DNA from: a virus
Virus record (IMG/VR): IMGVR_UViG_3300046690_000339
Coordinates: 15,900 to 79,899 of that record
Reading direction: 5' to 3' (one strand)
Length of the DNA stretch: 64,000 nucleotides
The notes beneath the pieces are model-generated. The model had not been told where the DNA came from, ran no database searches, and saw only the letters and a list, made by a program, of their open reading frames with translations. The position numbers and the translations under genes are program-made. Of this stretch, positions 14,675 through 20,530 are shown piece by piece; the stretch's first letter is position 1, and each line of letters starts with the position of its first letter.

Positions 14675-15877
14675 CTATTGCTCAAATTGCATCGCTGCGC
14701 CGTCCTCAAACTCGATCACGTTGCCGTCTTGGAATAGCATCTCGAAGGCGCCGAAATCGGCGGCGCCCGACGGATTGATGATCGCGTGCCCAGGATAGCC
14801 GCGCCCGACTTCGGCGCTGATTTGGTAAATGTTGATATGTAAGTTGGTGCCCTTTAGCCCACCGAAATCGGTTGTCTGATCCGCATCGTTATACGTGAAG
14901 GCTTCGGTCGTCGAGGTCAGCGTGCGAAGCACTGCGCTTTCATCATCCTCCAAGATATCCAGTTCGTAACTTTCCGCCGTCTCGGCAAGAGGCGGATCGT
15001 AAAAGTCCCGACCGTTGCGTCCTTGTAAACGGCTGCGCCGCTTGAAAGTAATCTGGACGTCATCCCCGATATCGGCCAAGCCACGAATGTCCACTGGAGC
15101 CCATGGCTTCAACGATATGCCGGTGTCGGTAAACGTGGTCGCTTGCGCACCGGTTATGTCCATGCCAGACGATACGGCTTTGAATTGCCGCGGCTGGCTA
15201 ATCACGGCCAGCGCATCGTTGATGCGGAAGGTAATCGCCTGGCGTAAAAGAATCGCCCGCTCATTCAGCAAGTGCGTTGCCATCGCCCACTCGGTTCCCT
15301 TATAGCCGCGCACCATGGGACCGTCCAAGCTCCAGCGCGTCGCCGATAGCTGGCTGACATTCTGAGACAGCACGATTTCATCGCCGATCAAGTAAGCCAC
15401 TTCGCCTTTCAGCATCTCTTCCAATGACATGCTTTCCAGCGTGCCGCCGATCAATTCGATCTCAAGCGTGTTGGCATAATCCAGCGTATTGATTTCGCCG
15501 GCCGGCAGCACTTCCTTGGCGAAACCGATCGGCGACGCTTGATCAACCGTTTTCACCTGCTGAAAATCCGCGGTATCATCGTCACTTTGCCAGAGGCTCG
15601 CCGCGCCCCAGGTCGCCAACGCGCCGCGCATGGCGACATAAAAGCCCGCGCCATCATCGGCATCGCGCAGCGTCGGGATATCCATTAAGCGCAGGATCGT
15701 CGAGCCCGGAACATTGACCGTCTGGTTCGGGAAGTTCGCCCGGACCGCTGTGACCGGATCGCCGAGCGCCTGACTGAAATAAATGGCGGGATCTTCCCGG
15801 TAGATTTTTACCGTGATCAATCCCTCGGCGGCCAGCGTCGCCTCGGCAATTCTTGCGGTGATATCTCGGGTTGCCAT
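14675..15877 (-). CDS. Tail tip (RcGTA gp15/megatron-like) protein, C-terminal part
   Basis: MDIPTLRDADD...GFYVA...W, EIV...A...W...RGYKGTE and PLAETAESYELDI motifs; begins mid-domain. Confidence 0.8.
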   Translation of the reverse strand: MATRDITARIAEATLAAEGLITVKIYREDPAIYFSQALGDPVTAVRANFPNQTVNVPGSTILRLMDIPTLRDADDGAGFYVAMRGALATWGAASLWQSDDDTADFQQVKTVDQASPIGFAKEVLPAGEINTLDYANTLEIELIGGTLESMSLEEMLKGEVAYLIGDEIVLSQNVSQLSATRWSLDGPMVRGYKGTEWAMATHLLNERAILLRQAITFRINDALAVISQPRQFKAVSSGMDITGAQATTFTDTGISLKPWAPVDIRGLADIGDDVQITFKRRSRLQGRNGRDFYDPPLAETAESYELDILEDDESAVLRTLTSTTEAFTYNDADQTTDFGGLKGTNLHINIYQISAEVGRGYPGHAIINPSGAADFGAFEMLFQDGNVIEFEDGAAMQFEQ

Positions 15878-18226
15878 TTAAGCCATTGCCCCTAACAGCG
15901 GCGCATCGTCATAACAACGCCGATTTCCCAGCTCACAATACTTCCGCTCCAAGTCCATCCCGATGCCGCGCCGGTTCATCTTGTCAGCGACTAGCGCCGT
16001 CGTCCCTGAACCGCTGAACGGGTCAAGAATGATCGCGCCGGGCTTCGATACCAGCTTGATGAGATACTCGATCAGGTCTTGAGGCTTGACGGTCGGATGA
16101 TTGTTGCCCTCGCCACGGTCGGCCTTGTCGGCCTTGGCGGTATAGTGAAATCTATTTGCTGAGTCCGCTTCCCCACGAACCGTATTGAATAGCGTGATGT
16201 TGAATGTGGCAGGCTCTACAGACCCATTTGATTTCCAGCGGCTTATTGTAATCGTCGTGATGTCGGTCCGCCTTTGGGTTGCCGCAATTTTCACAAGGCA
16301 ACCGTTCGGGAAAGGCTTTTCTTGCTGCAGCTCGGGCGAGACATTTTTTTCTAAACTCAGAATTGCTGTGATAAGCGACTCGCAAAGTTTTCTTAACTCT
16401 CTCGGCGTTGCGCTCATAAAATGGTGCGTTGAATCGCTTAATCCAAGTCGTCCTTGGCTGGCCAAAATTGCTGCATGACTTAGAGCAGAAGCGACGTGAT
16501 CGCTTGACAGGAAAGAAAGGTCGTCGGCAGTATTCGCAAGGTCTTGATTCCATGCTATTATTATAGCCTTGGCGTTGCAAAAAAGCGACTCAATTTCATT
16601 CAAAGAAACAGTTTTAAAAAACCGTGACGCGCCGCCGGTGTCGCCATACCAGTCAATCGGGTCTGCCCCTCTACTCTCTGCACCATAAACATTGCCTTGA
16701 TGACCAGACGTTGTTTTGGCGCGACTAACTGTTTTACCGCTGGTCAATTCCCCGCTCTGCTCATCGAGCAGCGCCGCCGCTTCTTCGTCGAGGATTAGGT
16801 TGGCGGGCCAACGACCGACGTTGCTGTGATGATTCGCTTTTGTCGGATCGTAGTTATCGCCAAGGCCGGTTTGAGACGGTCGCCCATTCGCGCCGCATTT
16901 ATAATCGCCATCGAGGTTGATTCGACACCCGTCGATATTCAGCGCCCCGGTACCGTATCGCTGCACGTTTTCGGCTACAGTGCCGATGATCGGCTTGCGG
17001 GCGACGATGATCGGCTGGAACTTAGGCCGTAATCCCAGCCCTATTTCTTCCGGGTGTAAGCGCTGCGCCTCGTCGATAGCATCGCCTAGAACAGAAAGCT
17101 CTTGGATGGCGTTGATGCTCGTGACGACGGCGTTCAAATATCTTGCCGCAGGCAAGGCATTTAACTGTAACCCAGGCGCTTGCAACTCTGCCTTTATGAT
17201 GATGCTTGGAGTGAGCGCCGATAAGCATAACTTCAAGATTTTTAGGTCGATTGTCGGATTTGTTTTCGATTCCCTCTCGCTTGTGGTGGACGTGCTCATT
17301 TCGTCGAAGTGGGCGACCAAGGCGCTGCGCCATGACGACACGATGCTCAAGCTCGTATTTATCGCCGACACGCACAGCGACGTATCCGTCTTTGCGCGTA
17401 AATCGTCCCAAATATTCTTTGGCTGCTCGACATCCCATCGAGCAAAAGCGAGCGCCGCGTCGTGCTCTGCTTGGCTTAACTTGAAATGTTGTTCCGCAAT
17501 TCTCGCAGGTAATATCGACCATAGTTGCGCCTCCAATTTCAATAGGTTCGCAACTATTATACTCCGTTCCGTTGATTCTGGAAATGGTTTTTGTGCTACT
17601 ATGATATTTTCCCATGCGGGTTTAAGCGCCGTGCCCCAGCCTTGCCACTCTTTTGCGGCGTCGGTAGATGGTGCAGTGAGTTTTTCTATTCCATAACCAA
17701 AGATAGCAGTATTGTTTCGATTAGCTTCAGCTGCGGCCATCGTGACGCCGTTTCGTTTTGCCGCCTGAACATCTCCCCTAACTTTTTCTCCAACAATCTC
17801 CCGCTCCGCTCCTGCCGCCTTATCAATCGCCTTACTCACGTCCAACGATTTCGGAAATCCGCTGCCGTAGAGCCACATGATGCAATCACGAATCTCAAAG
17901 CCTGCGTCCTCGATTGCGCAGGTCAGCCGGTGAAACGTCCGCGTGCCGCCGAAGGCGAGCAGGTAAGCGCCGGGCTTGAGCACGCGGAGGGCTTCGAGCC
18001 AGTATTCAACTCCCGGCACAACGGCGTCCCATTTTTGGCCCATGAATCCGCCGCCAGTTGTTACACGCGAGCGACCTGCAGGAGATTTCAGATTCAACGA
18101 AGCCGCGCCGCTTCCGCCTTTTTTGTTTTGAGTAAGTCCGTAAGGCGGATCGGTGATGATGGCGTCCACCGAATTATCCTTCAGCGGTACTTGTCTTGCG
18201 TCGGCGTTGAGAATTTTCCAGCTCAT
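15878..18226 (-). CDS. Beta-class N6A/N4C DNA methyltransferase with two in-frame insertions
   Basis: TDPPY, WLYGSGFPKS, GWGTALKPAWE, GRWPAN, HPTVKP and DPFSGSGTT motifs. Confidence 0.9.
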   Translation of the reverse strand: MSWKILNADARQVPLKDNSVDAIITDPPYGLTQNKKGGSGAASLNLKSPAGRSRVTTGGGFMGQKWDAVVPGVEYWLEALRVLKPGAYLLAFGGTRTFHRLTCAIEDAGFEIRDCIMWLYGSGFPKSLDVSKAIDKAAGAEREIVGEKVRGDVQAAKRNGVTMAAAEANRNNTAIFGYGIEKLTAPSTDAAKEWQGWGTALKPAWENIIVAQKPFPESTERSIIVANLLKLEAQLWSILPARIAEQHFKLSQAEHDAALAFARWDVEQPKNIWDDLRAKTDTSLCVSAINTSLSIVSSWRSALVAHFDEMSTSTTSERESKTNPTIDLKILKLCLSALTPSIIIKAELQAPGLQLNALPAARYLNAVVTSINAIQELSVLGDAIDEAQRLHPEEIGLGLRPKFQPIIVARKPIIGTVAENVQRYGTGALNIDGCRINLDGDYKCGANGRPSQTGLGDNYDPTKANHHSNVGRWPANLILDEEAAALLDEQSGELTSGKTVSRAKTTSGHQGNVYGAESRGADPIDWYGDTGGASRFFKTVSLNEIESLFCNAKAIIIAWNQDLANTADDLSFLSSDHVASALSHAAILASQGRLGLSDSTHHFMSATPRELRKLCESLITAILSLEKNVSPELQQEKPFPNGCLVKIAATQRRTDITTITISRWKSNGSVEPATFNITLFNTVRGEADSANRFHYTAKADKADRGEGNNHPTVKPQDLIEYLIKLVSKPGAIILDPFSGSGTTALVADKMNRRGIGMDLERKYCELGNRRCYDDAPLLGAMA
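16152..16553 (-). CDS. Nested HNH-like endonuclease inside MTase insertion 2 (alternative frame)
   Basis: PCEYC...FCSKSC and CENCG...HHDDYNKPLEIKWVCRACH; TATAAT 6 nt upstream of ATG 16553. Confidence 0.8.
   Translation of the reverse strand: MESRPCEYCRRPFFPVKRSRRFCSKSCSNFGQPRTTWIKRFNAPFYERNAERVKKTLRVAYHSNSEFRKKCLARAAARKAFPERLPCENCGNPKADRHHDDYNKPLEIKWVCRACHIQHHAIQYGSWGSGLSK
17022..17522 (-). CDS. Nested HNH endonuclease inside MTase insertion 1 (alternative frame)
   Basis: EHRVVMAQRLGRPL...VHH...DNRPKNLEV with flanking zinc ribbons; GGAGG SD at 17530-17534 before ATG 17522. Confidence 0.85.
   Translation of the reverse strand: MVDITCENCGTTFQVKPSRARRGARFCSMGCRAAKEYLGRFTRKDGYVAVRVGDKYELEHRVVMAQRLGRPLRRNEHVHHKREGIENKSDNRPKNLEVMLIGAHSKHHHKGRVASAWVTVKCLACGKIFERRRHEHQRHPRAFCSRRCYRRGAALTPGRNRAGITA
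17521..17584 (-). promoter_or_regulatory. Internal sigma70-like promoter plus SD-occluding hairpin for the nested HNH
   Basis: TTTCCA-17-TATAAT (-10 at 17556-17561); 9-bp stem ATAGTTGCG/CGCAACTAT at 17521-17557. Confidence 0.7.
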
Positions 18227-20530
18227 TTAAGCCGCTACCCTCAAGTTCACCGGATCAGCCGCATCCAGCGCCACATATTTTCTAGGCAGCATCAGCACGC
18301 GCGGATCGCGTTCGAGCCAGTGCGTCGCGCTTAAAACCTCGGCAATCTGTTTCGCCTTGGTCGATGTCATCACAATAGCAAGATCTACCGTAACCACGTT
18401 TTTCGATTCGCTGTTTAATCGACCTGACGAAACAACGTGACCGGTTTGATAGCTCGCATCCTGATCTTTAAACCGTACGTGGACAATGACAGGGAGTTCG
18501 CTTTCCTGCGAGCGCGTGATTTCCTGCACCGGCGGAAGAGCGGCGTTCAAGTCGAGCCGCGCCGCACAATCCCCCTGCAGTATCGTCGCCACGGCATTAT
18601 GTCCGCGCTTGCGGAAGTAAAGCATGTTGTCGCTTTCCGGCCCGTCATAGTAGGCATAGCGCTGGAGCGGTAGCGTGGCGTCGCGGCCTGTCATCTGCTG
18701 ATCGAGGGTGAAGCCGCGCACGCAATCGGTAAGCTCGGTGACGTTGAATTCGTTTTCTTCCATACCGCAAGCGATGCAGATATCACGCTGGATTTTCCAC
18801 AGCGGACAGCACAGACCCTCGGCACCCGGTGCCCAGGCATGAACGGTGAAGTCATAAAATCCCCAAGTGCCAAAATTCCCGGTGTACCAAATTCCATTTC
18901 GGACAAAGAGCGTACCGTCGAGGCCCGAGTTGACATGAGGAGTCGCCGATTGACCAAGAAAAGTTATTTCGCCATCGTTCCAATCCCAAAAGAGCGCCGA
19001 GCCGAAAGTCTGTCCGGTATTGCCAAAAAGTCTTATTCGGGTATCGCTCTCGACGAAAAAATTTCGGACTTTATTCGTGCCAAGATCGTAACTTTGCACA
19101 AGCGACATATCTTCGGGGTCGAACTTATAAAGCATCGCGTGCGCGAGAATATTTCCGAATGCGTCAAAATTGACTCCGCGCAAGGCCCACAAAAAGTCAT
19201 CGCCCATATTGATGCTGCTAAGACCGCCATGATCCGTCCAAAAGCTGTCGGCGATCTTACCGATCAATGCACCGCCATCCGCGTTGAATCGCTCGATCAG
19301 TGAAAATTTTCCTCCTGTCGGGACCCGACGCATCAAATAAAGATCGGTTCCCTTCTTCGCAAAGAAATCATAAGGCGGCTGCGGCGGCCCGATTGTTGTG
19401 ATAATTTTTCCTGCACGCACGAGCCAAGCTTTGCCGTCACTCGCGAAGAGCGCAGCCGGTTCGTCGCTGACTCCAGTCGCCATCACGCCGCCCAATTCGC
19501 TTGGGCTCGAATTGTCTGTAAAGACTGCCGGCGGTCGTTCTTCTTCGATGTATGATCCATCCGATAGCAGGCGAAACGCGCGAATGAAATACTCGCCTGC
19601 ATTGGGGCCGCTCGGAATGATGTCGGTATAGACTTGGCTCCCATGACCGACCATCATCAGAATTTCGCCGTTAGGATCGACATAGGACCAACTGCCGAAG
19701 CTACCGCTTGCGCCGCCCTCATCGGTCATCTGCCAGTAGCCTTTTTCCTGATAATTTTCATCGCCGTCCGTGTAGCACTCAAAAGAAAGATTCGGGATAG
19801 TCCCGTACTCCGTCGTCTCGAAATCTTGAAAGACGGCCAAGAATTGATTTCTATACGCCGTGGTATTACCGACGCCCTCGAAGGCTTCGATTAGCGCGGG
19901 CGGCAGCTGTTCTTCGTTGCCATCATAAAAAGTAACCGAGCCGGCGTTTCTGCCTTCGAGATTCTGCCCGGTGCCAATTAGGCTTTGCAGACTGGCATCC
20001 ATGCTGTGATCATAAATTAATTTTGGCCCGGCCCAGATTCGGATCACGCCACGGCAGTTCGACGCGCCATTTATCGCCACGGCAAAGTCGGCAAAGTACG
20101 TAAACGTTTCACCCGACGACCCACCTTTGCCCTTACCGCCGACGGTGTGCTTAAATGTGCGAATGCCACGACCGCCATGGCCGTCCGAGCCGATCCAGAT
20201 CAAATTTCCTGCCATGCGATCGACGCCCCAGAATCGTTTGATCGGCGAGCCGAATGCGGCCGATTGAATGTGTGCGTCTTTCAGGCGCGGTCCGGTTACG
20301 CTTTGGTTTGCGCCTTGGAATATTGAAAACAGAGTTGAACTTATTGACCACGCCAGTTGCGCACTGGTGAGAATCGAGCTTACCGACCACGTTGCGGCGG
20401 CGGCAGTAGCGCCGGCCGCAACCTCGGCAGCAACCGCGCTCGCCGCCGCCACTCCGGTCGTCGCAGCTGCGCCGCCAGCGCCAATCTCGGCGGCGGAGCC
20501 GACTGCCGCCATTATTGTAACAAAACTCAT
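18227..20530 (-). CDS. Tail tip (gp15/megatron-like, Phage-tail_3) protein, N-terminal part
   Basis: FGSPIKRFWG...GNLIW, YFADFAVAI, RIWAGPKLIY, AYR and ELPVIVHVRFKD motifs; ends at LDAADPVNLRVAA. Confidence 0.85.
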   Translation of the reverse strand: MSFVTIMAAVGSAAEIGAGGAAATTGVAAASAVAAEVAAGATAAAATWSVSSILTSAQLAWSISSTLFSIFQGANQSVTGPRLKDAHIQSAAFGSPIKRFWGVDRMAGNLIWIGSDGHGGRGIRTFKHTVGGKGKGGSSGETFTYFADFAVAINGASNCRGVIRIWAGPKLIYDHSMDASLQSLIGTGQNLEGRNAGSVTFYDGNEEQLPPALIEAFEGVGNTTAYRNQFLAVFQDFETTEYGTIPNLSFECYTDGDENYQEKGYWQMTDEGGASGSFGSWSYVDPNGEILMMVGHGSQVYTDIIPSGPNAGEYFIRAFRLLSDGSYIEEERPPAVFTDNSSPSELGGVMATGVSDEPAALFASDGKAWLVRAGKIITTIGPPQPPYDFFAKKGTDLYLMRRVPTGGKFSLIERFNADGGALIGKIADSFWTDHGGLSSINMGDDFLWALRGVNFDAFGNILAHAMLYKFDPEDMSLVQSYDLGTNKVRNFFVESDTRIRLFGNTGQTFGSALFWDWNDGEITFLGQSATPHVNSGLDGTLFVRNGIWYTGNFGTWGFYDFTVHAWAPGAEGLCCPLWKIQRDICIACGMEENEFNVTELTDCVRGFTLDQQMTGRDATLPLQRYAYYDGPESDNMLYFRKRGHNAVATILQGDCAARLDLNAALPPVQEITRSQESELPVIVHVRFKDQDASYQTGHVVSSGRLNSESKNVVTVDLAIVMTSTKAKQIAEVLSATHWLERDPRVLMLPRKYVALDAADPVNLRVAA

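Follow-up and report, generated by a model that had tools for sequence, protein, structure and literature searches.

In the 64,000-nucleotide stretch of viral DNA studied here (the window; positions 15,900 to 79,899 of IMG/VR record IMGVR_UViG_3300046690_000339), a DNA methylase gene carries inside its coding sequence, in another reading frame, a gene for an HNH endonuclease. Homing endonuclease genes are held to persist inside other genes by means of a self-splicing intron, an intein or the splitting of the gene. Our reading is that this insert (insertion 1) is a ShiLan-type hidden-HNH homing cassette placed in the LKPAxE/PIxxARKP motif of a phage N6/N4 methylase, kept without splicing and translated through, and we give this reading a probability of about 0.72. 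The initial annotation of the window had described an HNH cassette overprinted in a methylase whose frame stays open, and this observation was confirmed.

The kind of element is already known from mycobacteriophages, in which a hidden out-of-frame HNH in a DNA methylase was named the "ShiLan domain" (Gosselin et al. 2023, PMC9957025; Arsenault, Gosselin and Gogarten 2025, PMC11855218), and the window copy is a further case. The hidden-HNH elements of mycobacteriophages reported in 2023 and 2025 suggest a route that may do without splicing, and the window extends the ShiLan-type element far beyond the actinobacteriophages.

Identification of the hidden HNH gene in the methylase

The methylase is a single open reading frame (ORF) of 782 amino acids on the minus strand (15878 to 18226) and carries two hidden-HNH inserts. 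It is a beta-class N6/N4 DNA methylase that matched PF01555 (N6_N4_Mtase) with E 7e-31, with matches at both protein ends, and its DPPY motif is N-terminal and its DPFSGSG motif C-terminal. The contig belongs to a soil/rhizosphere phage with a GC content of about 54%, which is not an actinobacteriophage.

The first hidden HNH gene lies in frame +2 of the methylase (17022 to 17522, minus strand) and encodes 166 amino acids from the ATG at 17522, which is the likely start; counted from an alternative ATG at 17615 (17022 to 17615), the ORF has 197 amino acids. The initial annotation had read a zinc-ribbon/HNH protein from this frame. Its HNH core, in which the catalytic H/N/H residues are kept, lies between two CxxC zinc ribbons. 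Pfam matches to HNH_3 and Zn_ribbon were weak, PHROG HNH families matched with E down to 7e-16, and a PDB sequence search with the HNH profile gave no match. A tblastn search of phage records showed that the HNH protein was 55% identical to an ORF hidden in the methylase of Cylindrospermopsis phage Cr-LKS3 and 48-50% identical to ORFs in mycobacteriophages ShiLan, Bipolar, MISSy, Murica, Mantra, Starcevich and others, all of them lying under coding sequences (CDSs) annotated as methylase. The ShiLan match (48.5% identity, E 2e-30) lies beneath the ShiLan methylase CDS. Four phage loci were read frame by frame, and in each of them the hidden ORF occupied frame +2 at the same motif and the annotated methylase frame ran through it without a stop. 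For annotation, this means that long phage "methylase" CDSs may conceal an unannotated nuclease gene.

Stop avoidance in the methylase frame across the family

With the HNH profile we collected 77 loci from viral contigs, 62 of which were close homologues and 15 distant ones. Over the HNH gene the methylase frame contained no stop in any of the 62 metagenomic viral loci (62/62; GC 0.28-0.71), while the control frame in the same loci contained 2-25 stops. The open frame in most of these loci carries DPPY, GWG, two A.KP copies and DPFxGSG. The 15 distant homologues lack methylase motifs in that frame, have 2-12 stops there and are apparently free-standing genes. A search of genome contigs recovered only three close copies (a Betaproteobacteria metagenome-assembled genome, Kribbella and one uncultured bacterium), and all three had 0 methylase-frame stops. 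Stop avoidance in homologous insertions, which had been named in the initial annotation as a check on dual coding, was thus found in 62/62 and 3/3 cases. Earlier, the lack of stops was known from a few GC-rich phages; with 0 stops in every locus down to 28% GC, the survey makes it a clear sign of selection.

One locus, L032, has a methylase-frame stop near position 2975 (ERDIIL-stop-NL), just upstream of the HNH start; it lies in the leader region and not over the HNH gene, and a decayed host gene or a sequencing error is possible.

For the window itself, HNH codons were resampled with the window's own codon usage, and 5.5 methylase-frame stops were expected, with P(0)=0.0009. A within-gene synonymous shuffle was not discriminating (P(0)=0.08), because the codon choice of the gene is already adapted, and the background-usage resampling was adopted in its place. 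Identity across 16 diverged cassettes was 0.53 in the HNH frame, 0.317 in the methylase frame and 0.298 in the control frame, and the latter two stood above a synonymous-randomised null by much the same margin. Read in the methylase frame, the insert body otherwise behaves as a spacer.

An intron or a ribosomal hop needs no open frame, and with all these loci free of stops, translation through the insert is the simplest reading. A self-splicing or host-assisted intron that escaped recognition, with the open methylase frame incidental, would suit the fact that HNH genes are frequent in phage group I introns, and the start of the insert resembles the sequence past the insertion site, which has been noted for some group I introns (PMC11855218). 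Yet a Rfam covariance search over 15000-19500 on both strands, which covered the group I core raised in the initial annotation, found no match at E<=1, and RNAweasel and MFannot found nothing in the ShiLan copies (PMC11855218). The promoter and the HNH ORF take up essentially all 594 nt of the insert, which leaves no space for a ribozyme core, and the relatives are free of stops even at GC 0.28-0.30. So we regard an intron as very unlikely.

Insert boundaries and the duplicated motif

The initial annotation had placed two copies of a methylase motif 594 nt (198 codons) apart, alike as peptide and recoded as DNA. The spacing proved exact, with the upstream (N) copy LKPAWENIIVAQKP at L201-P214 (17585 to 17626, minus strand) and the downstream (C) copy LRPKFQPIIVARKP at L399-P412 (16991 to 17032, minus strand), both of the LKPAxE-xIIVAxKP type. 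Comparison of the two copies gave 8 of 14 identical residues and only about 19 of 42 identical bases (about 45% nucleotide identity, counted by hand). The right half of the N-copy is AT-rich like the cassette, and the right half of the C-copy fits the empty-site consensus. Counted from the empty-site motif, so that LKPAWE precedes the insert and PIIVARKP follows it, the 594-nt insert of 198 codons occupies 17015 to 17608 (minus strand). The interval is open in the methylase frame, and the HNH stop TAA (17024 to 17022) falls within codons P401/K402 of the downstream copy, as had been claimed. The peptide encoded by the insert in the methylase frame is stop-free and matches no family.

These boundaries come from comparison with insertion-free homologues, also proposed earlier. 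Mycobacteriophage Target gp60 (331 amino acids) has no insert and carries a single uninterrupted motif, LKPAFEPIVVARKP. Among 80 viral methylase relatives found with the N-terminal part of the window methylase, at least 72 have an empty, uninterrupted site, and LKPAWEPIIVARKP is the empty-site sequence in L086 and L098.

Alignment of the motif copies in 60 loci showed that K2, P3, E6, A11, K13 and P14 of the N-copy are kept in 59-60 loci, with third codon positions only 31-43% identical. In the C-copy, P7, A11, R12, K13 and P14 are kept and the left half is looser. The first 11 or so residues of the insert mimic the residues past the insertion site, as in ShiLan, and the window C-copy also mimics the upstream half (LRPKFQ vs LKPAWE). 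Each junction is thus rebuilt to resemble the native motif, and the resemblance is maintained at the protein level. An AlphaFold2 model was used solely to see which motif copy forms the strand of the core; it placed the C-copy as a confident core strand (residues 406-410, predicted local distance difference test (pLDDT) about 82), whereas the N-copy stayed below pLDDT 50 and the insert was modelled as helical, away from the confident core. This placement is weak evidence.

With both junctions kept as peptide, a conserved-motif site and a frame that is open as in inteins, the insert might be translated and then removed by a non-canonical protein splicing or proteolysis, with the motif copies as ligation or cleavage context. 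The initial annotation had recognised no intein termini, and we likewise found no Hint or intein Pfam match. By our boundary the insert begins with Asn207 and ends with Gln404, and the +1 residue is Pro405 (the published boundary starts at Pro203), so there is no Cys, Ser or Thr at insert residue 1 or at +1 and no terminal His-Asn. An encoded splicing fold cannot be reconciled with an insert body that is no more constrained than the control frame, and we consider removal at the protein level highly improbable.

Dual coding had originally been offered in two forms, as a tolerated loop or as translational bypass between the motif copies, and only the tolerated loop is favoured by the present data. 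Bypass would have ribosomes skip the 594 nt in the manner of T4 gene 60, with the first copy as take-off and the second as landing site, for which two similar peptide motifs flanking a gap would be fitting. A hop of this sort depends on codons that match at take-off and landing, as a rule with a stop right behind the take-off codon. In the window the two copies are recoded and the first is not followed by a stop; the gap is also some 12 times as long as that of gene 60 (50 nt), and bypass would not select for an open frame over it. We give this explanation almost no credence.

Movement of the cassette between methylases

The history of the cassette is decoupled from that of its host gene. HNH identity and 5'-exon identity were uncorrelated (r=0.04), and where cassettes share 0.89-0.99 of their DNA sequence, the identity of their flanks is only 0.47-0.69; the cassette thus moves between diverged methylases. 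In the pair L028/L029, the high-identity block spans both motif copies, with its edges at +4 and -9 nt. A block that reaches from the first to the last motif-copy residues means that both copies move with the cassette, and this co-movement was seen in the two most recent-looking pairs. At the family level the distribution is disjunct, which fits homing. The claim that the insert is a homing element that is neither intron nor intein is therefore supported by the Rfam null result, the lack of a Hint domain, the stop-free frame and the movement of the cassette.

No recent transfer partner turned up for the copy in the window, whose closest HNH was 63% identical. Contigs of four soil/rhizosphere runs were compared with positions 15400-18700, and no clean insert-free allele of the same phage was present among them; three other samples contain the phage at low depth, and contigs there bridge both insert junctions. 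Two joints, 16822>17615 and 16951>17884, were considered as empty alleles and rejected, since their sides were only 27 and 22 nt long and came from methylases of other organisms.

Four loci (L061, L066, L067 and L068) have HNH relatives at another methylase site, after GFPK(G/S)LN, about 60 amino acids upstream. Their methylase frame is open and has a single LKP..ARKP motif, and the placement looks like site switching within the host gene. In a further methylase relative, L150, LKPAHEPIMVGQKP is followed by an insert of different appearance in which frame +2 stays open for 165 codons; this may be another hidden-ORF lineage at the same site.

Predicted expression signals of the hidden gene

The initial annotation had listed a promoter, a Shine-Dalgarno (SD) sequence and a hairpin for the hidden gene, and all of them were located and found to be conserved in relatives. 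The sigma-70-like promoter TTTCCA-17-TATAAT (17556 to 17584, minus strand) is found where the insert begins and is itself part of the methylase coding sequence, and the SD sequence GGAGG (17530 to 17534, minus strand) stands 7 nt before the ATG at 17522. A 9-bp hairpin (17521 to 17557, minus strand) is formed by pairing of 17557-17549 with 17529-17521, with the SD in the loop; its 5' arm shares bases with the -10 box, and the AU of the start codon is paired within its 3' arm.

In the window by itself the 91-nt fold is unexceptional (z -0.67), and the stronger support for promoter and hairpin comes from conservation in relatives. In 25 of 59 relatives the distance from TATAAT to the HNH start is exactly 39 nt, and 40 of 59 have the box there when up to one mismatch is allowed. 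Most relatives have GGAGG 7 nt ahead of the HNH start, and several have TTGACx 16-17 nt upstream of the -10 box. The ungapped block GGAAC..TATAAT..GAACCTA..TGGAGGC..TATGG is conserved across relatives. The first Ile codon in the -10 box is ATA even at contig GC >0.6, as seen in the aligned rows, which were viewed and not separately counted. Many loci have an HNH-frame stop between the -10 box and the HNH start, which indicates that the box is a DNA-level signal and not HNH coding sequence. In nine relatives picked by eye that share the window-type hairpin, 95% of cells pair and 4 of 9 pairs have compensatory changes, one of which couples TATAAT>TATAAC with ATG>GTG; the covariation score was reached by 0 of 500 shuffles.

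The heptamer GAACCTA (window 17549-17543), between the -10 box and the SD, is nearly invariant in most cassettes and includes the rare Leu codon CTA even in GC-rich contigs. It could be a transcription start region or a protein-binding site.

The likeness to T4 homing endonuclease genes that had been pointed out for hairpin and promoter held up. An internal late or middle promoter combined with a hairpin that sequesters the ribosome-binding site (RBS) has been demonstrated for I-TevI, I-TevII, I-TevIII, segB and Aeh1 mobE (Edgell, Gibb and Belfort 2010, PMC2988022), and the window fits this scheme, which recurs in relatives with compensatory changes. The layout of a start-occluding hairpin and a promoter overlapping its 5' arm was found in silico. 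The T4-type genes also have an SD about 7-8 nt before the AUG, a hairpin that masks the translation start on read-through transcripts, a promoter whose own transcript lacks the 5' arm, and an embedded position in the host transcription unit. They differ from the window in that they sit in introns, or between or inside split genes, with the host rescued by splicing or splitting, whereas the window's regulatory module is itself translated in the host frame and its activity is predicted only.

Proposed mechanism and points against it

On the internal promoter we propose the following. On the read-through methylase mRNA the hairpin would mask the start codon, and transcripts from the internal promoter could not form it, because the -10 box overlaps the 5' arm. 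Methylase alleles without the insert are presumably cut or nicked at the conserved site by the zinc-ribbon/HNH enzyme, and repair with the filled allele as template would then give them a copy of the cassette, as in homing. The host gene would be rescued without RNA or protein splicing by a length that is a multiple of three, by the lack of methylase-frame stops and by a rebuilt motif at each junction. The ribosome would read straight on to give the 782-amino-acid methylase, presumably active, in which the insert would form an internal excursion that separates the catalytic N-part from the C-part that contains the target recognition domain and binds S-adenosylmethionine (SAM). This splicing-free read-through is the best-supported mechanism and, judged from the sequence comparisons, a probable one.

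Several points weigh against the read-through cassette as we describe it. Apart from the avoidance of stops, no clear constraint on amino acids is visible in the insert body (identity 0.32 in the methylase frame vs 0.30 in the control). The related loci share ancestry, and 62/62 does not amount to 62 independent trials. Promoter-like sites are not enriched in the region (3 found vs 1.8 expected), and the window -35 box is weak, with 4/6 matching positions. The nine relatives of the hairpin analysis were chosen after the pairing had been seen, and a second hairpin type, which overlaps the SD in the Cr-LKS3 group, had one compensatory pair and a score reached by 38 of 500 shuffles, which is not significant. 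Splicing is excluded indirectly, and the protein could be read through and yet inactive. The AlphaFold2 model of the 782-amino-acid protein, built on a 30-sequence alignment, was poor (mean pLDDT 55), and it gives no support for activity of a methylase whose motif VIII holds about 200 additional residues.

In its stronger form, the last concern is that the long methylase is enzymatically dead, with the open frame kept for downstream translation coupling or to avoid polarity. The methylase stop and the start of the next gene overlap as TAAATG, which would suit such coupling, as would the insert body without amino-acid constraint, and in close relatives of ShiLan the methylase is wholly missing (PMC11855218). 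But DPPY, NxHPTVKP and DPFxGSG, which serve catalysis and SAM binding, do not vary among 30 insert-bearing methylases whose genomic contexts differ widely, from which the host methylase looks functional; the rebuilt junction motif is kept as peptide, and stops are avoided in all contexts sampled. A dead methylase is therefore unlikely in our view, and we keep to translation through the insert into a presumably working enzyme.

More tentatively, the cassette may bring its own repair kit for the host protein, a surrogate strand plus stop-free overprinting, which would give homing endonucleases a third general way, besides introns and inteins, to persist in an essential-fold motif. The idea comes from both motif copies travelling with the cassette and from the N-copy peptide being held (A11, K13 and P14 in 59-60 of 60) while third positions drift. 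The N-copy abuts the -35 box and might also be a non-cleavable mimic of the homing site that the HNH protein binds for autorepression, much as I-TevI binds to repress its own promoter (PMC2988022). We regard this proposal as possible but doubtful.

Comparison with known hidden and embedded endonuclease genes

The closest system is the ShiLan element. In the published description (PMC11855218) no intron or intein signature was found, mimicry at the insert start was noted and a tolerated loop was proposed, all from sequence and without experiments; no RBS was found, and leaderless GTG initiation was suggested. The window copy shares with ShiLan the methylase family, the insertion site (LKP/AFEPIVVARKP in ShiLan, the slash marking the insertion point), an HNH in the third frame with two zinc ribbons and a stop at the 3' edge of the insert, a methylase frame without stops, first insert residues that mimic the post-site residues, and no signs of an intron or intein. 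Unlike ShiLan, it lies outside the actinobacteriophages and has a recognisable promoter, a canonical GGAGG-7-ATG and a hairpin occluding the RBS and start; its C-side copy mimics the upstream half too, and a second, unrelated hidden HNH is present in the gene. For the window's lineage, promoter, SD and hairpin offer a possible answer to the question of how the hidden gene is translated, which PMC11855218 had left open. The window stands out for its complete predicted regulatory module and for two different hidden HNH genes in one methylase.

Pacc40 gp60 (PMC11855218) also has an out-of-frame nuclease ORF in an open methylase frame, at another site. Its methylase family, site and nuclease lineage differ.

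Inteins with homing endonuclease domains are similar as in-frame, co-translated and sporadic insertions in a conserved phage-gene motif, but the window endonuclease is in another frame and has no Hint fold and no splicing residues. Aeh1 mobE in nrdA (PMC2988022) is an HNH cassette with its own regulation inside a conserved phage gene, and there nrdA becomes two ORFs, whereas the window methylase stays one; a split gene was accordingly rejected for the window.

A second hidden HNH in the same methylase

The second hidden HNH ORF of 142 amino acids (16152 to 16580, minus strand) also lies in frame +2 with the methylase frame open, and it is unrelated to the first HNH. It has a perfect TATAAT at 16565-16560, only 6 nt ahead of an in-frame ATG at 16553, and a transcript from this box would have little or no leader. 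In either HNH frame, the -10 box encodes Tyr-Asn. Motif copies, ASRFF and ANRFH, stand on either side of this insert.

At the edges of the methylase gene, the identical 10-mer GGCTTAAATG occurs at 15874-15883 and at 18227-18236 (minus strand), where the stop TAA overlaps the ATG.

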